NCBI GenBank assembly: GCA_963719225.1
Contig: CAVRAY010000001.1
Location: 768,001-832,000 of the forward strand
DNA: 64,000 bases
Direction of reading: 5' to 3'
Origin: Thermoanaerobaculia bacterium
GTDB lineage: Bacteria > Acidobacteriota > Thermoanaerobaculia > UBA5066
Below the pieces are notes generated by a model. That model searched no databases. It was given only the letters and a program-made list of their open reading frames with translations, and was not told where the DNA came from. Positions 34,645-42,471 of this stretch are shown here, piece after piece. Made by a program: the position numbers and the translations under genes. Position 1 is the stretch's first letter; each line of letters starts with the position of its first letter.

Positions 34645-35925
34645 TCAGTCCGGCGCGGGCTTCCCGAAGGTCTCCGTGATCGCGAACGTGAGGAGGCAAG
34701 CAAGGAGCAGCATGCCGAGGTTCGTGAGAAACGCGGCGCGATAGCCCGCGACGGGATAGCGTCGCGCGCCGCCTTCGAGGACGCCGAGCCAGTGCGCATC
34801 GAGGATCCGGCCGAGAACGTTCTGTGTCACCGCCGCGCCCAGGAAGCCGCCCGCATTCACCGTGGCCGTCGCGATGCCGCTGAACCGTGGCGGATTTACG
34901 TCGCGTGCGAGGGCCCATGTGAGCGTGAAGCAGCTCGTCGCGAGACCCAGCAGGAAGCAGAGAGGCCCGAGAAGGGCGCGCGGCGGTCCCGCGGAAGGGA
35001 CGCAGACGCAGGCCCAGACGGCCGCGTAGGCGAGCGTGAACAGAATGTAGGGAAGGCGCCGCGCCCGGAAGACCTTGTCGGAGAGGAAGCCGGCCGTCGG
35101 CGCTCCGAGGATGACGCCGATGCTGACGAGGGACACGATCCCCGCGGCCTCCTTCGCCGTCATCCCGTAGACGTCCCGCATCCACGGGACCGCCCAGAGG
35201 CCGGAGAACGAGAGATACGTCCCGTACTGGAAGAAGAAGACGGCGAACATCGGCCACGTCCTCCGGTTTCCGAACACCGTCCGATAGCCCTCGGCCACCG
35301 AGACGCGAGGGACCGCTCCGCGCGCCAAGGGCGGCGGAAGGCCTGCGTCCTCGGGCCGGTCGCGTACGACGGCGAGGCAGAGGCCCGCGAGGGCGAGCGA
35401 AAGCACCGCCACGCCGCCGAACGTCGCGCGCCAGCCGAGGGCGGCGACAACGAGCGCCAGTGGGGCCGTCGCGAGGAGGCCCCCGAGGTTTCCGGCGACT
35501 TGCGTGAGGCCCGACCACGTCCCGAACTCGTCCGGCCTCCACCAGGCGCCCACCTGCTTGAGCATTCCGATGAACACGACGGAAGCGCCCGCACCCACGA
35601 CGAGCCGCGCTCCGTACGCGACGGGCAGGACGCGCGCGGCAGCGAAAACCGCTCCGCCCGCCGCCATCATGGCCGCGCCCGCCGCCACGGCGCGCCGCGG
35701 CCCCCACGCATCCACGGCCGCGCCCACGACGAACTGCATCGCGGCGAACGCGTAGAGGTAGAGGGCGGCCATCGTGGCGACCTCGACTCCCGTCGCCGCG
35801 AAGCTCGCCATGAGGTCTTTCGCGAGGACGGCCGGCGCGATCCGGTGGAAATAGGACACGACGTAGACGAGCGCGAGGACGCCCCAGATGCGCAGCCGGA
35901 TGGCGGCGAACGACCCTTCCCTCAC
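34645..35925 (-). CDS. MFS transporter
   Basis: SYFHRIAPAV, DAWGPRR motif A, about 12 TM helices; GTG start overlaps the amidase stop codon. Confidence 0.9.
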   Translation of the reverse strand: MREGSFAAIRLRIWGVLALVYVVSYFHRIAPAVLAKDLMASFAATGVEVATMAALYLYAFAAMQFVVGAAVDAWGPRRAVAAGAAMMAAGGAVFAAARVLPVAYGARLVVGAGASVVFIGMLKQVGAWWRPDEFGTWSGLTQVAGNLGGLLATAPLALVVAALGWRATFGGVAVLSLALAGLCLAVVRDRPEDAGLPPPLARGAVPRVSVAEGYRTVFGNRRTWPMFAVFFFQYGTYLSFSGLWAVPWMRDVYGMTAKEAAGIVSLVSIGVILGAPTAGFLSDKVFRARRLPYILFTLAYAAVWACVCVPSAGPPRALLGPLCFLLGLATSCFTLTWALARDVNPPRFSGIATATVNAGGFLGAAVTQNVLGRILDAHWLGVLEGGARRYPVAGYRAAFLTNLGMLLLACLLTFAITETFGKPAPD

Positions 35926-37340
35926 GCCGGCGGGCGCTTCTTGTGCCACTCCGTGCGCGCCTGGTACGCGGCGCCGAGTGCGACGAGCGTCTCGTCCGAG
36001 AACGCTCGGCCCGTGAGCTGGAACGCCGTGGGGAGGCCTTTCTCGCCGAAGCCGTTCGGCACGGAGAGCGCGGGCTGGCCCACGAGGTTTCCCGCCGGAA
36101 TGACGGCCGGGCCGCCGCCGACGCCGGGATACGCCTTGTCGAAGTCCGGGCCGATCGGGTATGCGACCGTCGCCCTCGTGGGCGAGACGAGCGCGTCGAA
36201 TTTCGCGTAGAGCGCGTCCAGAGCCTTCTTCATCGGCGCGCGCAGGCGCAGCGCCTGGATGTAGTCCACCGCGAGGACCATGGATGCCGCGTAGCCGCCC
36301 CAGCGGTCGTTCGGGACCTTGAGCTCCCGGGTGCGGCCGCTCTCGATGAGATCGCGGAAGGCGCTCGCGCCCTCGGCCGCCACGATCGTCCCGACCGCCG
36401 GCCCGTACGGGAACTCGGGGTACGTCACGTCGGGCACGATCTCGCAAAAGGCTTCGAAGACCTTCAAGGAGGCTTCGAAGTTCTTCCGCACCTCGGGCTG
36501 GACCTTTTCCGTCGTGCCCTTGATGACGCCGATCCGGAAGCGCCGTGGCTTCCCGCCCGCGGAAGGCACGCGCGCCGGCGCGAAGGGACGCGCGAGAGAC
36601 GTCGGGTCCTTCGGGTCGCGCCCCGCGATCGCGGCCATGACGAGACCGCAATCCTCCGCCGAACGGCACATCGGGCCGAGCTTGTCGAGCGTCCAGCAGA
36701 GCGCCATCGCGCCATGCCGGCTCACGCGGCCGTACGTCGGCCTGAGGCCGGTCACGCCCGAGAACGCGGCGGGCGTCAGGATGGAGCCCGAGGTCTCCGA
36801 GCCGATCGAGAACCCCACGAGGCCGGCGGCCATGGCGGCGCCGGGCCCCGAGGACGACCCGCCCGACCAGAAGTCCGTGTTCCACGGCGTGCGGCCGGGT
36901 CCCGTGAACGACGCGTCCGCGTTGTTGTAGCCGAGGCCGCCCGCGAGCTCGACCATCGCGAGCTTCCCGACGAGGACGGCGCCCGCGTCGTGCAGCTTCC
37001 TGACGACTGTCGCGTCCTCGTCGAAGACCTGAGTCCGGTACGGCTCGGCCCCCCACGTCGTGGGGATGCCCTTCGTCGCGAGGAGGTCCTTCACGCCGTA
37101 AGGCACGCCGTGGAGCGGCCCGCGCCATTTTCCGGCCGCGAGCTCGGCCTCCGCCGCCTTCGCCTCCGCGAGCGCGCGGTCTTTCGTGATCGTCACGACG
37201 GCGCCGTACCTCGGACCGAGGCGCTCGAGCCTGTCGAGCGCGCCCTCGGCGAGGGCGACGGGCGAGATTTCCCGCGCCTTGAGCTTCTTCGAGAGCTCGC
37301 TGACGGGAAGAAAGAAGACGTCGTCGCCGGGCGCAGCCAT
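35922..37340 (-). CDS. Amidase-signature family enzyme (no signal peptide)
   Basis: GPLHGVPYGVKD, SGGSSSG, GSETSGSI. Confidence 0.92.
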   Translation of the reverse strand: MAAPGDDVFFLPVSELSKKLKAREISPVALAEGALDRLERLGPRYGAVVTITKDRALAEAKAAEAELAAGKWRGPLHGVPYGVKDLLATKGIPTTWGAEPYRTQVFDEDATVVRKLHDAGAVLVGKLAMVELAGGLGYNNADASFTGPGRTPWNTDFWSGGSSSGPGAAMAAGLVGFSIGSETSGSILTPAAFSGVTGLRPTYGRVSRHGAMALCWTLDKLGPMCRSAEDCGLVMAAIAGRDPKDPTSLARPFAPARVPSAGGKPRRFRIGVIKGTTEKVQPEVRKNFEASLKVFEAFCEIVPDVTYPEFPYGPAVGTIVAAEGASAFRDLIESGRTRELKVPNDRWGGYAASMVLAVDYIQALRLRAPMKKALDALYAKFDALVSPTRATVAYPIGPDFDKAYPGVGGGPAVIPAGNLVGQPALSVPNGFGEKGLPTAFQLTGRAFSDETLVALGAAYQARTEWHKKRPPA

Positions 37341-37699
37341 CAGGCGCCTCCCGGCAGTTCCGCGAAGAAGACGATGTCCGGCTCGTCGGCGTTCGTGAGA
37401 GGAACCTTCTTCATCGCCTCGGCCCCGCGGAGACGCCCGTCGAGGGCTTTCGCGATCTCCGAGAGCTGCTCGCCGGACAGGTGCCGGCCCCAGCGGATGC
37501 GCACGACCTCCGTGAGCGCCTCGGCGGCCGAGGACGGGGCCTCGGGCGTGGGGACCGGCGTCGGAGACGGTGCGGGAGACGGCGCGGGAGCCGTCTGGCC
37601 GAGGGCGGTCGCCGCGCCCGAAAGGGCCGGCGCGGCCGCAGCGAGCGCGAGGCTCTTCGCGAAGAGACGGCGCGAGGGCGAGAGGTTGGGGTCGGACAT
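37340..37699 (-). CDS. Small Tat-signal protein, putative GatC-like partner of the amidase
   Basis: SRRLF Tat motif, Pro-rich linker, helical domain ending LTNADEP; its stop overlaps the amidase ATG. Confidence 0.75.
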   Translation of the reverse strand: MSDPNLSPSRRLFAKSLALAAAAPALSGAATALGQTAPAPSPAPSPTPVPTPEAPSSAAEALTEVVRIRWGRHLSGEQLSEIAKALDGRLRGAEAMKKVPLTNADEPDIVFFAELPGGA

Positions 37700-37739
37700 T
37701 TGTCGCCTCCGTCAAAGTTCGGGGTGATTCAAATGTATC

Positions 37740-37769
37740 TTGATTCCACCGGCGTCGCTCCGCGATAAT
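37740..37769 (+). promoter_or_regulatory. Sigma70-type promoter for the gltB leader
   Basis: TTGATT (37740-37745), 18 bp spacer, GATAAT (37764-37769), 9 nt before ATG37779. Confidence 0.6.
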
Positions 37770-37778
37770 TCCCTCGCG

Positions 37779-37889
37779 ATGGCGAAGACCTCGACGGCGA
37801 CTACCAAGACCACGAAGAACGTGGGCGAGGCCGTCATTGGCCTCGTCCTTACGAAGCGTGCTGCGGCGGGGGGCGGGCGAGGGGATTAA
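37779..37889 (+). CDS. Putative attenuator leader peptide (36 aa), Thr- and Val/Ile/Leu-rich
   Basis: MAKTSTATTKTTKNVGEAVIGLVLTKRAAAGGGRGD*; followed after 24 nt by an intrinsic terminator. Confidence 0.72.
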   Translation: MAKTSTATTKTTKNVGEAVIGLVLTKRAAAGGGRGD

Positions 37890-37913
37890 GGTACACGGCG
37901 ACACGGAAATCCC

Positions 37914-37946
37914 AAGGCCCGCTCCCAGGAGGGAGCGGGCCTTTTT
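37914..37946 (+). terminator. Intrinsic terminator (attenuator) upstream of gltB
   Basis: AAGGCCCGCTCCC-AGGA-GGGAGCGGGCCTT perfect 13-bp stem followed by a T tract. Confidence 0.88.
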
Positions 37947-37974
37947 CGTTCTGGCGGTAAGAAAGAGGAGAGAC

Positions 37975-40900
37975 GTGGAAAGAGGGAGCGCGCCGCGACG
38001 GTGGACGGACGGGGTCAGCCCCGCGCGAAACCCGTTCCGTGAGCAGGACGCCTGCGGCGTCGGCTTCGTCGCGCACCCGCGCCACTCCTCGCATCGGGTC
38101 CTGAGGCTCGCGCTCGGGGGGCTCGCCCGCGTCGCGCACCGCGGCGCGACGGGCGCGGACCGGACGGGCGACGGCGCCGGGATCCTGACCCGCATTCCCG
38201 AGAAGCTCTTCCGCCGCGAGGCGGAGCGGCTGGGGATTCCTCTTCCCGACGGGGCGCCTTTCGCGATCGGGACGTTCTTCTTTCCGCGCGTGAACGACGC
38301 GCAGCTCTGGTCGATGGAGCTCGTCGAGAAGACGTTCGCCGCCGAGGGGCTGCCGTTCCTCGGATGGCGCACCGTGCCCGTCCGGACCGAGCGGCTGGGC
38401 CCTGCGGCCGAAGAGGCGAGGCCGGCGATCTTCCAGGCCTTCGTCGGTCCTCCGCGTGACCGGGACGCCGCCGAGTGGGAACGAACGCTCTATCTGGCGG
38501 GACGCGTCGCCGCGCGGCGGGCGCGCCAGGCGAGGCTCCACGGCTTCTGGGTCGTGTCTCTCTCGTCGAGGACCATCGTCTACAAGGCGCTCCTGACCGG
38601 GACGGAGCTGAAGCCCTTCTATTCCGACCTCGAGGACTCCGACTACGAGACACCGATCGCCGTCTTCCACCAGAGGTATTCCACGAACACGGTTCCGAGC
38701 TGGAGCCTCGCGCAGCCGTTCCACCTCCTCGCGCACAACGGCGAGATCAACACGTTGTGGGGAAACCGGAACGCGATGCGCGCGCGCGAACCCGAGCTGT
38801 CGTCCCCGGTCTGGAACGGCCGCCTTCCGCGCCTCCTCCCCGTCCTGACCGACGAGGGCAGCGACTCGACGAGCCTCGACGAGGCGCTCGAGCTCCTCGT
38901 GCGATCGGGTCGCGACCCGCTTCACGCGCTCACGATGCTGATTCCCGACGCTCCCCAGGGCGAGGCCGATGACGCCCTGCGTGCGTTCTACGATTTTCAC
39001 GCGGGCCTCGTCGAGCCGTGGGACGGACCCGCGGCCGTCGCCTTCTCGGACGGAATCGTGGCCGGCGCGCACCTCGACCGCAGCGGCCTTCGTCCCCTGC
39101 GCTTCAAGATCGCGCGGGACGGGCTCGTCGTGGCCGCTTCGGAAGCGGGAATCGTCGACCTCGAGCCCGAGGACGTCGTGGAGAGCGGGCGCCTCGGCCC
39201 GGGCGAGACGATCGCGGTCGACACGGCGACGGGAGAGGTGCTCCGCGACGCGGACGTGAAAGCCCGCCTCGCCGCGCGGCGGCCCTGGGGCGCGTGGGTG
39301 AAGCGGCATCTCGTACACGTCACGAAGGTGGAGGTCCCTCTTCCTCCCCCGCCCGACGAGGACCTCGTCAGGTTCCAGAGCGCCCGGGGATGGGGCGTCG
39401 AGGACGTCAAGTACGTCCTGGCCCCGATGGCGGCCGGAATGGAACCGGTCTTCAGCATGGGCGACGACGCTCCGATCCCGCCGCTCGCGAAATCCCTACA
39501 GCCGCTCTACTCGTTCTTCCGCCAGCGCTTCGCCCAGGTCACGAATCCGCCGATCGACTCGCTGCGCGAGACGCTCGTCATGTCGCTTCGCATGGACCTC
39601 GGGAAGGGAGGCTCGCTCCTCCTCGAGGAGCCCGGCGACGCCCACTTCCTGACGCTGGAGCATCCGGTCCTCCTCGAGGACGAGATGGCGGGCGTCTTCG
39701 CCGCGTCGGCGTTCAGGCCCGTGACTCTCGACGCGACGTTCCCCGCCGACGACGGGGAGCGCGCCCTGACCGCCGCGCTCGAGGAGCTGTCGCATCGCGC
39801 CGAGGCGGCGGTGCGCGCGGGTTCGGAGATCCTCGTGATCACCGACCGCGGCGCCACGAAGGAACGCGTTGCGATTCCCTCGCTCCTCGCGCTCGGCGCG
39901 GTCCGCGAGCACCTCCTCCGCACGGGCCTGCGCTACCGCGTCGGCCTCGTCGTGGAGAGCGGCGACGCGCGCGACGTGCATCACTTCGCGGTCCTCTGCG
40001 GGTTCGGGGCCGAGGCGGTCCACCCGTGGCTCGCGCTCGCGTCCGTGCGGGCGCTCGCCGCGCGGGAGGACGTTCCCGGCGACGCCGCAGCCACGTTCCG
40101 GGTCTCGGCCGAGAAGGGGCTCCGCAAGGTCATCGCGAAGATGGGGATCTCCGCGCTGTCTTCGTATTGCGGAGGTCAGGTCTTCGACGCGCTCGGGCTC
40201 GCGCCCGAGGTGATGGAGCGCTGCTTCCGGGGAACCTCCTCGCCGCTCGGCGGCCTCGGATTCGCCGAAATCGCCTCGGACGTCCTCGCGTCCCATCGCG
40301 CGGCGTGGGAAGGCGCTCCGCTGCCCGACCACGGCCGCGTGCGCTATCGCAAGGACACCGAAGAGCACGCGTGGTCGCCGCCGGTCGTCGTCTCCCTCCA
40401 GAAGGCGGCGAAGGGAACGGACGGCGCGTGGGAGGAGTTCCGCGAGAAGGCCGACGCGCGAGGCGCTTCGGTGCCGCGGGACCTGCTCGGCTTCGCTCCG
40501 CGGCAGGCCGTGCAAGTCGAGGAGGTCGAGAGCGCCGAGGAGATCCGCAAGCGCTTCATCGTCTCGGCGATGTCGCTCGGCGCCCTTTCCCCGGAGATGC
40601 ACGAGACGCTCGCGATCGCGATGAACCGGATCGGGGCCCGATCGAATTCCGGCGAGGGCGGCGAGGACCCGGCGACCTGGGAAGACTCCGGCGGCGAACG
40701 CCGGGACAACAAGATCAAGCAGGTCGCCTCCGCGCGCTTCGGCGTCACGGCCCGGTACCTCGTGAGGGCAGACGAGCTCGAGATCAAGATGGCCCAGGGC
40801 GCAAAGCCGGGGGAAGGCGGCCAGCTGCCCGCGCACAAGAACTCGCCGCTCATCGCGCGGCTGAGGCTCACGGTGCCGGGCATTCCACTCATCTCGCCGC

Positions 40901-42471
40901 CGCCGCACCACGACATCTATTCGATCGAGGATCTCGCGCAGCTCATCCACGACCTCAAGGAAGTCAATCCCAATGCCCGCGTCGGCGTGAAGCTCGTGGC
41001 CGAGGCCGGCGTCGGGACCGTCGCCGCGGGCGTCGCGAAGGCTTACGCCGACTACGTGCTCATCGCCGGGCACGCGGGCGGGACGGGCGCCTCTCCGCTC
41101 TCGTCGATCAAGCACGCCGGCGCGCCCTGGGAGCTGGGGCTCGCCGAGGCGCAGCACGCGCTCGTCGAGAACGGCCTCCGCCGCCGCATCGAGGTGCGCG
41201 TGGACGGGGGCCTCAGGACGGCGCGCGACGTCGTCATCGCCGCGTGCCTCGGCGCCGAGTCGTTCGGCTTCGGGACGGCGCCTCTCGTGGCGGCGGGGTG
41301 CTCGATGGCGCGGCAGTGCCACCTGAACACGTGCCCGACGGGCATCGCGACCCAGCGCGAGGACCTCCGCAAGAAGTATCGCGGGACTCCCGAGAAGGTC
41401 ATCGCGTACTTCACGCACCTCGCCGAGGACGTGCGCGAGATCCTCGCTTCGCTCGGCGCGCGCTCCCTGGACGAGATCGTGGGCCGGGCCGACTTCCTCG
41501 CCCGCGTCGACCGCCCGGAATCTCCGCGTGCGGCGCTCCTCGACACGTCCCTCCTTCTCCTTCGCGCCGACGACGGGACGAGCCCGCGCCGACGCATGCA
41601 GCTGCGCAACGACCGGCCGCGCCGGGGTCCGCAGTTCCCGTCGCTCGACAGCGAAGTCCTTCCCGAGGCACTTTCCGCGCTCCGGTCGTCGGGCGCGTAC
41701 TCCGGGACGTTCGAGGTGCGCAACCACAACCTCTCCGTGGGGGCGCACCTTTCCGGCGCGCTCGTGCGCGAGCTCGGCGAGGTCCCTCCCGGCGCCGTGC
41801 GCCTGAAGTTCCGCGGGCCGGCCGGCCAGAGCTTCGGCGCGTTCGCGATCTCGGGCCTCGTCCTCGAGCTCGAGGGCGAGGCGAACGACGGCGCGGGGAA
41901 GGGACTCTGCGGCGCCGAGATCGTCCTGAAGCCGTCCCCCCGTGCCCGCCATGCCGCCTCGGCGGGTCCCCAGGCGATCGTCGGGAATGCGGCGCTCTAC
42001 GGCGCGACGTCCGGCCGCTTCTTCGCCGCGGGCCGCGCCGGCGACCGGTTCGCCGTGCGCAACTCGGGGGCGGTGGCGGTCGTCGAAGGGCTCGGCGTGC
42101 ACGGCTGCGAGTACATGACGGGTGGGATCGTCGTCGTCCTCGGAGAGACGGGGGCGAACTTCGGGGCGGGAATGACGAACGGCGTCGCTTACGTGCTCGA
42201 CGCCGACGGACTCTTCGCGTCGCGGTGCAACACGGAGCTCGTGAACGTCGAGCCGCTGGGCGTCGCCGACGAGGAGATCCTCCTGCCGCTCGTCAGGACG
42301 CATCTCGAGAGGACGGGGAGCGCGGTCGCCCAGCGCATCCTCTCGAGCTGGGACTCCGTGCGCACCCGGATGCGGCGCGTGGCCCCGAAGACGGCGCCGG
42401 CCCTGGCTCCGGCGGTCGCGGATGCGAAGGAAGCGCCCGACGAGAAGCCGAAGCTCGCCCGGACGGCGTAG
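37975..42471 (+). CDS. gltB: Glutamate synthase large subunit
   Basis: DACGVGF, HQRYSTNT, HNGEINT, EPWDGPA, FAQVTNPPID, SNSGEGGED, QGAKPGEGGQLP, CSMARQCHLNTC; GAGGAG RBS before GTG37975. Confidence 0.96.
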   Translation: MERGSAPRRWTDGVSPARNPFREQDACGVGFVAHPRHSSHRVLRLALGGLARVAHRGATGADRTGDGAGILTRIPEKLFRREAERLGIPLPDGAPFAIGTFFFPRVNDAQLWSMELVEKTFAAEGLPFLGWRTVPVRTERLGPAAEEARPAIFQAFVGPPRDRDAAEWERTLYLAGRVAARRARQARLHGFWVVSLSSRTIVYKALLTGTELKPFYSDLEDSDYETPIAVFHQRYSTNTVPSWSLAQPFHLLAHNGEINTLWGNRNAMRAREPELSSPVWNGRLPRLLPVLTDEGSDSTSLDEALELLVRSGRDPLHALTMLIPDAPQGEADDALRAFYDFHAGLVEPWDGPAAVAFSDGIVAGAHLDRSGLRPLRFKIARDGLVVAASEAGIVDLEPEDVVESGRLGPGETIAVDTATGEVLRDADVKARLAARRPWGAWVKRHLVHVTKVEVPLPPPPDEDLVRFQSARGWGVEDVKYVLAPMAAGMEPVFSMGDDAPIPPLAKSLQPLYSFFRQRFAQVTNPPIDSLRETLVMSLRMDLGKGGSLLLEEPGDAHFLTLEHPVLLEDEMAGVFAASAFRPVTLDATFPADDGERALTAALEELSHRAEAAVRAGSEILVITDRGATKERVAIPSLLALGAVREHLLRTGLRYRVGLVVESGDARDVHHFAVLCGFGAEAVHPWLALASVRALAAREDVPGDAAATFRVSAEKGLRKVIAKMGISALSSYCGGQVFDALGLAPEVMERCFRGTSSPLGGLGFAEIASDVLASHRAAWEGAPLPDHGRVRYRKDTEEHAWSPPVVVSLQKAAKGTDGAWEEFREKADARGASVPRDLLGFAPRQAVQVEEVESAEEIRKRFIVSAMSLGALSPEMHETLAIAMNRIGARSNSGEGGEDPATWEDSGGERRDNKIKQVASARFGVTARYLVRADELEIKMAQGAKPGEGGQLPAHKNSPLIARLRLTVPGIPLISPPPHHDIYSIEDLAQLIHDLKEVNPNARVGVKLVAEAGVGTVAAGVAKAYADYVLIAGHAGGTGASPLSSIKHAGAPWELGLAEAQHALVENGLRRRIEVRVDGGLRTARDVVIAACLGAESFGFGTAPLVAAGCSMARQCHLNTCPTGIATQREDLRKKYRGTPEKVIAYFTHLAEDVREILASLGARSLDEIVGRADFLARVDRPESPRAALLDTSLLLLRADDGTSPRRRMQLRNDRPRRGPQFPSLDSEVLPEALSALRSSGAYSGTFEVRNHNLSVGAHLSGALVRELGEVPPGAVRLKFRGPAGQSFGAFAISGLVLELEGEANDGAGKGLCGAEIVLKPSPRARHAASAGPQAIVGNAALYGATSGRFFAAGRAGDRFAVRNSGAVAVVEGLGVHGCEYMTGGIVVVLGETGANFGAGMTNGVAYVLDADGLFASRCNTELVNVEPLGVADEEILLPLVRTHLERTGSAVAQRILSSWDSVRTRMRRVAPKTAPALAPAVADAKEAPDEKPKLARTA

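Follow-up and report, generated by a model that had tools for sequence, protein, structure and literature searches.

The 64,000-nucleotide (nt) stretch of DNA analysed here as a whole, hereafter the window, derives from a Thermoanaerobaculia bacterium of the phylum Acidobacteriota (contig CAVRAY010000001.1, positions 768,001 to 832,000, forward strand) and carries gltB, the gene for the large subunit of glutamate synthase. What decides whether gltB is transcribed, when a short open reading frame (ORF) and a transcription terminator lie between its promoter and its start codon? The gltB leader resembles the ilv, thr and leu attenuators but lacks one of their defining features, feedback from the product of the regulated operon. 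Attenuation coupled to the ribosome very probably controls gltB in some form. The more specific reading, held with moderate confidence, is that the leader permits gltB transcription when transfer RNAs (tRNAs) charged with Leu, Val and Ile, and in some members Thr, are scarce. The leader element itself is real, conserved and probably functional.

The element lies on the plus strand directly 5' of gltB. A sigma-70-type promoter at 37740..37769 (-35 TTGATT, 18-nt spacer, -10 GATAAT) is the sole match within 36500-38500, with 0.0 expected in shuffles; the relatives have a 17-nt spacer with CATACT or CATAAT. It is followed by a near-leaderless leader ORF at 37779..37889 (ATG at 37779, TAA at 37887-37889) with 36 codons in the window and 33-39 in relatives. 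Next come a predicted intrinsic terminator at 37914..37946 (a 13-bp hairpin at 37914-37943 with a T5 tract), and the gltB ribosome-binding site at 37965..37970, a purine-rich stretch that has its like in all 18 leaders described below. The gltB gene itself (37975..42471, GTG start, 1498 amino acids) encodes a full-length large subunit and scores 1589 bits against an NCBIfam equivalog cut-off of 1047. The initial annotation had read the region as a leader-peptide attenuator and had placed the promoter, the 36-codon ORF with its seven Thr codons, the terminator and the ribosome-binding site where they are found, and its overall interpretation is supported. It missed the absence of a Shine-Dalgarno site, hence the near-leaderless character of the ORF, and a conserved hairpin inside the ORF at 37823..37848. 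The window leader folds with z = -3.0, and none of 200 shuffles was as stable. Two observations were named in advance as counting against attenuation: a promoter of gltB's own downstream of the terminator, and poor conservation of the ORF and stems. The stretch from the terminator to gltB, about 30 nt long in the window, holds no promoter-like site, and both ORF and stems are kept in the relatives, as follows.

Close gltB orthologues (74-100% identity) occur in 17 members of the same Thermoanaerobaculia genus out of 61 related genomes, and promoter, ORF and terminator are kept together in 16 of the 17 loci. Both of two metagenome loci also have the leader, which gives the 18 leaders analysed. 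In the one genus member without it (G022; L008, G022:C47), gltB directly follows the same promoter; this member nests inside the leader-bearing clade on the tree, and the cassette was therefore lost there. The start codon, ATG or GTG, lies exactly 9 nt past the -10 hexamer in 18/18 leaders, which leaves no room for a Shine-Dalgarno site. All 18 ORFs have 33, 34, 36 or 39 codons (99-117 nt, all multiples of 3), and the gaps in the aligned ORFs are multiples of three, whereas the spacer from stop codon to terminator (26-29 nt) varies in single bases. This difference is the strongest sign that the reading frame matters, and the coding constraint expected of a classical attenuator is thus seen in the short ORF between promoter and gltB in every leader. 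The stop codon is conserved, and the N-terminus is otherwise divergent. Promoter, frame and helices are under clear purifying selection in 16/17 loci.

A covariance model of the leader gives 16 matches at E <= 1e-18 in the 61 family genomes, all of them gltB leaders, with the next best at E = 0.005. No further copy was found in the own genome, where the next nhmmer match has E = 0.035. An exact-motif scan of GTDB species genomes returns 13 loci, all 5' of gltB, and these are not independent, as their peptides are identical to those of genomes already analysed. No Rfam family reaches its gathering threshold in the window leader (the best scores 22.3 bits where 75 are required; Thr_leader 18.3 against 55; Trp_leader 20.5 against 41), and the Rfam scan of 11 related loci gave 0 matches.

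Which codons could be sensed? The candidate control codons form the pattern Ile-x-Leu-Val-Leu-[Thr/Val/Ile]-Lys-Arg (segment 1, 37836..37859). Leu-Val-Leu is invariant in 18/18 leaders; Ile stands two codons before it in 11/18, as ATT in 10, and Val, Ile or Thr comes after it. The choice of synonymous codons is biased, with ATT making up 18 of the 36 Ile codons in the leaders against 6.8% in the genome, and CTT 13 of the 68 Leu codons against 6.5%. The claim that the window leader uses the uncommon codons ACT, ATT and CTT holds for their rarity (2.8%, 6.8% and 6.5% of synonymous codons genome-wide), but ACT accounts for just one of its seven Thr codons. Thr, Ile, Leu and Val together take 8-15 of the 23-29 leader codons, against a share of about 31% across 409 gene starts. 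Few if any codons for Gln, His, Trp or Tyr occur. Seven Thr codons are more than in any of the 409 gene starts, and the count ranges from 1 to 7 across the leaders, with a strong Thr run in the window's subclade and 1-2 Thr in six relatives. The suggested coupling to Thr and branched-chain supply stands with one adjustment: Thr is not invariant, while Leu-Val-Leu, usually with Ile two codons before, provides the invariant candidates. Thr as the sole control amino acid was rejected, as 6/18 permissive windows contain only 1-2 Thr at no fixed position. Sensing of Asn, Gln or Glu was likewise rejected, since no such codon is conserved: the 620 leader codons include 11 Asn, 1 Gln and 19 Glu (3.1%), with Glu and Gln at no invariant position.

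The second requirement of an attenuator is a pair of mutually exclusive structures. The G-rich end of the ORF had been proposed as an antiterminator strand, and the pairing analysis agrees. Segment 2 (37869..37886), the final ORF codons, can pair with segment 3 (37909..37926), which includes the 5' arm of the terminator: 37869-37878 pairs with 37917-37926, and the helix continues through 37881-37886 with 37909-37913. The partners of segment 2 are thus the terminator arm and the C-run preceding it. For the antiterminator and a small post-stop hairpin, 94% of alignment cells are paired, compared with 27-54% when the strands are slid. The terminator has a predicted stability of -19 to -29 kcal/mol in 18/18 leaders. 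The upstream hairpin (0:1), whose loop contains or adjoins the Ile ATT codon, forms 8-11 of its 11 pairs in 18/18, has a G-C pair replaced by A-U through a double change in three leaders, and is better than shuffles (p<0.05) in 14/18; it may be a pause or decoy hairpin. Support for the stems comes mostly from invariance and G-U wobble, with double-sided changes limited to the upstream and post-stop hairpins. Segment 1, through its Leu-Val-Leu codons, is able to pair with segment 2 in 99% of cells, and this 1:2 protector helix is predicted to lose against the upstream hairpin.

The effect of a ribosome was modelled by folding the RNA as far as the 5' arm of the terminator while masking -18 to +12 nt around each A-site codon, at equilibrium and with no kinetics. 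The antiterminator has P>0.5 in 17-18/18 leaders with the A site at Leu+3 to +5 and in 0/18 from Leu+8 on, and it is favoured at nearly every ribosome position up to the Lys-Arg pair. The computed switch therefore falls between Leu+5 and Leu+8, with antiterminator and terminator mutually exclusive, as in an attenuator. The modelled switch geometry is that of an attenuator, and folding alone does not name the control codon. In 20 ilvD leaders, scored with a looser measure than the gltB leaders, the antiterminator falls from about 0.7-0.9 to 0.2-0.4 shortly past Leu-Val-Leu.

From these elements, the following course of events is proposed. A ribosome would start at the near-leaderless ATG and open the upstream hairpin. 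On reaching about 7-8 codons past the first Leu, near the stop codon, it would mask segment 2, and the terminator would form. A ribosome lingering at or before Ile-x-Leu-Val-Leu-x-Lys-Arg would leave segment 2 free to pair with segment 3, and RNA polymerase would read into gltB. The speed through the Ile, Leu, Val and Thr codons would thus decide whether segment 2 is masked as the terminator arm emerges. In RNA free of ribosomes, readthrough is the predicted default, owing to the upstream hairpin. The charging of branched-chain, and probably Thr, tRNAs would act as a proxy for glutamate supply. Leu, Val, Ile and Thr get their nitrogen from glutamate by transamination, so a lack of glutamate would show more clearly in the charging of their tRNAs than in that of the glutamate tRNA.

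A comparison within the same genomes comes from the ilvD-ilvB-ilvC-leuA operon of the family. In all 25 ilvD loci with upstream DNA examined, out of 30 fetched, a branched-chain-rich leader with a terminator is present. Like the gltB leader, the ilvD-operon leader has a leaderless ORF, an Ile-x-Leu-Val-Leu-Thr core (present in many members), ATT and CTT codons, a G-rich ORF end and a GC terminator. In contrast, its Leu and Val content is about twice as high, it is shorter and its terminator is different; common descent is not demonstrated. An 11-mer coding for Leu-Val-Leu-Thr occurs twice in 4.75 Mb, only in the gltB and ilvD leaders, and a 12-mer common to both is likewise unique to them. On sequence grounds, homology between the two leaders is suggestive only. 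In addition, these ilvD leaders are found family-wide (G000:C1:1090790-1090960, L035; L040-L064), and in the genus a divergent gene, LysR-like by eye, adjoins their promoter. A genome scan yields 13 leader-terminator candidates, of which two look real besides gltB and ilvD: a metY-like gene preceded by a leader with a Met/Cys run, and an asd-like gene preceded by one with a Lys/Thr/Arg run (G000:C1:3564600-3564860 and C1:1624970-1625140). Both gene names are presumed from recognised sequence motifs, apart from any family scan. With Ile/Leu/Val before ilvD, Lys/Thr before the asd-like gene and Met/Cys before the metY-like gene, codon-matched attenuators appear habitual in this organism. The region upstream of glnA, inspected by eye, shows no comparable leader-terminator.

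Does gltB stand under such leaders elsewhere? Upstream DNA of 158 further gltB loci of the phylum was examined (13+14+28+80+23), the first 13 and 14 being judged by eye. Nine of the 158, a share that is not a frequency because 23 loci were chosen as relatives of the first positives, have a short ORF of uncertain start whose end lies 30-43 nt upstream of a terminator and is complementary to the 5' arm of that terminator. These nine leader-terminator cassettes are unrelated to the window's leader. Six share one cassette with Val/Thr/Ile-rich ends, and the other three share a different one. Downstream genes were examined in six of the nine loci, and ilv or thr genes follow in three. These three belong to the Val/Thr/Ile-rich cassette, where such genes stand after gltB in 3/4 genomes scanned, in another class. 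The longest run is ten genes on one strand, gltB-gltD-ilvB-ilvN-ilvC-ilvD-cimA-aspartate kinase-thrC-thrB (G674; L264, G674:C86). A second locus reads gltB-ilvA-thrC (G635; L267, G635:C83), a third has thrC about 400 nt further from gltB (G538; L266, G538:C32), and in the fourth, G399, gltB-gltD is followed by a ROK protein. For the remaining cassette (L224-L226, L268, L269; G649, G651, G662), downstream genes were examined at two of the three loci, and G662 continues to gltD, glnD, amtB and a PII gene. Two small ORFs lie between gltB and gltD there, one of them an HNH endonuclease in G651.

On a quick tree of 79 rows (4 dropped because the motif was not found), these leader-bearing gltB genes occupy three clades separate from that of the window (support 100), and the rows sister to the latter are without a leader; as the tree had no root test, separate origins are not counted. 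Elsewhere, therefore, gltB stands under leaders of the Thr/branched-chain type with ilv and thr genes as a clear reason, and the same signal is plausible in the window. The ilv/thr runs behind these similar leaders are what backs the Thr and branched-chain coupling first suggested for the window. A broader proposal is tentative, with confidence just short of even: gltB would repeatedly, in at least three Acidobacteriota gltB clades, have come under attenuators that read Leu, Val, Ile and Thr charging and not glutamate, and in the window's version the hairpin would flip the default to readthrough, making a protein-free, multi-amino-acid sensor of nitrogen sufficiency.

Several results weigh against the branched-chain reading. 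Being closely related, the 18 leaders do not count as independent; they fall into about four subclades. The Lys (16/18) and Arg (17/18) after the core are nearly as conserved as Leu-Val-Leu itself, and the conservation of the Leu-Val-Leu codons is confounded with their base pairing to two partners. Overall, Leu (11%) and Val (8%) in the gltB leaders equal the genome average, compared with 20% and 19% in the ilvD leaders. In a genome search with a profile of the ilvD leaders, the gltB leader comes third at a non-significant E = 0.55, and the top match lies inside a coding gene; the gltB covariance model does not recover the ilvD leader. In the antiterminator core, changes are absent or of the G-U wobble kind, with none double-sided. 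Moreover, the control codons are not singled out by folding, as almost any ribosome position 5' of Lys-Arg permits the antiterminator.

This last point leads to the main rival, in which the same switch serves as a general sensor. Slowed translation from any shortage of amino acids or nitrogen, including Thr, Lys and Arg, would then be the signal, and not branched-chain supply specifically. The ground for this idea is that the upstream hairpin is predicted to set the switch to readthrough, and a ribosome pausing at nearly any of the first 25-30 codons would leave it there. Ribosome-free nascent RNA favours the antiterminator in 14/18 leaders at equilibrium, and the permissive window covers the whole N-terminus. 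The N-terminus is unconserved, and subclades trade Thr (24% vs 10%) against Ile, Leu and Val. The window leader also has a Thr/Lys run, as in the asd leader, and a general signal would suit glutamate synthase. However, the enrichment in Thr, Ile, Leu and Val and the near absence of Gln, His, Trp and Tyr show that the composition is not neutral. The Ile-x-Leu-Val-Leu pattern and the rare ATT and CTT codons are common to the ilvD leaders, and 9/20 of the latter likewise default to the antiterminator, a property that is therefore not special to gltB. A general sensor is judged unlikely.

An arrest peptide, with the ribosome tunnel as the site where glutamate, glutamine or 2-oxoglutarate is sensed, is far less probable. 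A stall at the stop codon would keep segment 2 masked and favour termination, the ligand would match the enzyme, and the C-terminal Gly-Arg-Gly-Asp-stop and the Leu-Val-Leu-x-Lys-Arg stretch are nearly invariant. Arrest peptides of the TnaC and SpeFL type keep residues at the protein level and at a fixed distance from the stall site. The gltB leaders of the genus do not: the distance from Leu to the stop is 14 or 15 codons (a one-codon indel), with free variation among the intervening residues. For Gly-Arg-Gly it is the nucleotides of the codons that are invariant, the rare CGA among them, as pairing would demand, and the other gltB leaders of the phylum have no such motif.

The leader could also be the leftover of an ilv/thr operon attenuator, kept after the break-up of an operon that gltB once headed and of little specific benefit to gltB. 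The gene orders in G674 (with gltD between), G635 and G538 would fit this history, and so would the loss of the cassette in G022. Against it stand the purifying selection in 16/17 loci, the separation of the window's gltB clade from the operon clades and its sister rows without a leader, and the idea is improbable. Even if the origin were right, the mechanism would be that of the branched-chain attenuator. Among the three downstream ORFs scanned in the relatives, no ilv or thr gene was identified behind the genus gltB, and an acetamidase-like gene or DUF1499 is found instead.

The least probable explanation, a riboswitch or protein-bound antiterminator with an incidental ORF, draws on a structured leader in which binding of a ligand or protein could switch off the predicted default of readthrough, and on an ORF whose translation is only a prediction, but it does not explain the fixed start position, the interchange of ATG and GTG, the conserved stop or the frame-keeping indels, and no Rfam family at gathering score and no conserved unpaired pocket are evident in the alignments.

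The proposed attenuator responding to branched-chain and Thr charging can be set beside known systems. Classical enterobacterial leader-peptide attenuators include thr, leu, ilvGMEDA, ilvBN, trp, his and pheA, and according to the available part of the source they share with the gltB leader a promoter, a leader ORF, overlapping antiterminator and terminator, and a synonymous bias in the control codons, which in the gltB leader are candidates (PMC1183508). Their control codons are cognate to the operon product (PMC1183508, in the part available). The gltB ORF differs further in having no Shine-Dalgarno site. The candidate control codons here are not cognate to what the regulated gene makes, as GltB makes glutamate. 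The ilvB1NC attenuator of Mycobacterium tuberculosis, as described in the accessible portion of its report, also has a short upstream ORF, with about four branched-chain control codons ('LVVI'); when a ribosome reaches the stop it covers the antiterminator and the intrinsic terminator can form, as proposed for gltB (PMC13236596). The regulated genes there make the sensed amino acids, and RNA 3' ends and ribosome footprints were shown, whereas the gltB leader is known from sequence and has an extra upstream hairpin (PMC13236596, same portion). Such an attenuator before gltB would break the product-feedback pattern of the classical cases.

Classical leaders terminate by default when untranslated. 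The untranslated gltB leader RNA is predicted to read through, opposite to that default.

Glutamate synthase is elsewhere placed under DNA-binding proteins. In the available text, E. coli gltBDF is controlled by Lrp, IHF, Crp and ArgR (PMC1784095) and the Listeria enzyme by GltC (PMC13688922). Expression is fitted to the nutrient state in these cases also, but by proteins acting at the promoter, and the word "attenuation" does not occur in the available text of either source. The same extract of PMC1784095 describes gltBDF as relatively leucine-insensitive; it therefore offers no precedent for leucine sensing, and an analogy with leucine-sensing Lrp was dropped. No passage was found that supports direct CodY control of gltB. 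In the part of the PMC2965389 supplement available, six premature terminators precede genes annotated as glutamate synthase in other phyla, all of them unannotated, and the Acidobacteria attenuators are almost all unassigned; the accessible part of PMC4833913 makes no mention of glutamate or gltB. The literature search, whose coverage leaves out most subscription papers, found no description of a leader-peptide attenuator of gltB.

Mechanistically this would be textbook attenuation, and the surprise is limited to that extent. What would be new is the tie between nitrogen assimilation and amino acids that glutamate synthase does not make. It suggests how abundant uncultured soil Acidobacteria could couple nitrogen assimilation to amino-acid supply with no dedicated regulator. 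Moreover, the 240-nt cassette comes as a natural series, with 1-7 Thr codons, one clean deletion and ilv/thr-linked versions, in which specificity can be dissected. The codon-based Met/Cys transcription attenuator before the metY-like gene may merit separate attention.

Regarding the partner subunit, no gltD adjoins gltB (window 42471 onward), and none in the genome scores above the family cut-off (best 243.7 against 447.7 bits, G000:C1:2837789-2839141). GltB may work here with ferredoxin or a distant partner protein instead of an adjacent GltD.

Other gltB clades show further upstream arrangements. In a second clade of the family (L023-L025, L027-L030, L089, L091; one clade on the tree), a different near-leaderless ORF of about 30-33 codons begins past the -10 box. 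It reaches the gltB start or stops no more than about 15 nt from it, and a terminator is absent; L026 has no such ORF. It is possibly a case of translational coupling or a degenerate attenuator. In other gltB clades of the class (L020-L022, L083-L095), a gene that is LysR-like by eye lies divergently or directly upstream, with no leader. At the window locus itself, a divergent operon on the minus strand (35922-37699) shares the promoter region and encodes a small protein without a family match and an amidase that is GatA/AtzE-like and scores below all cut-offs. A conserved motif just 5' of the -35 box of the gltB promoter is possibly the -10 box of this operon, or an operator.

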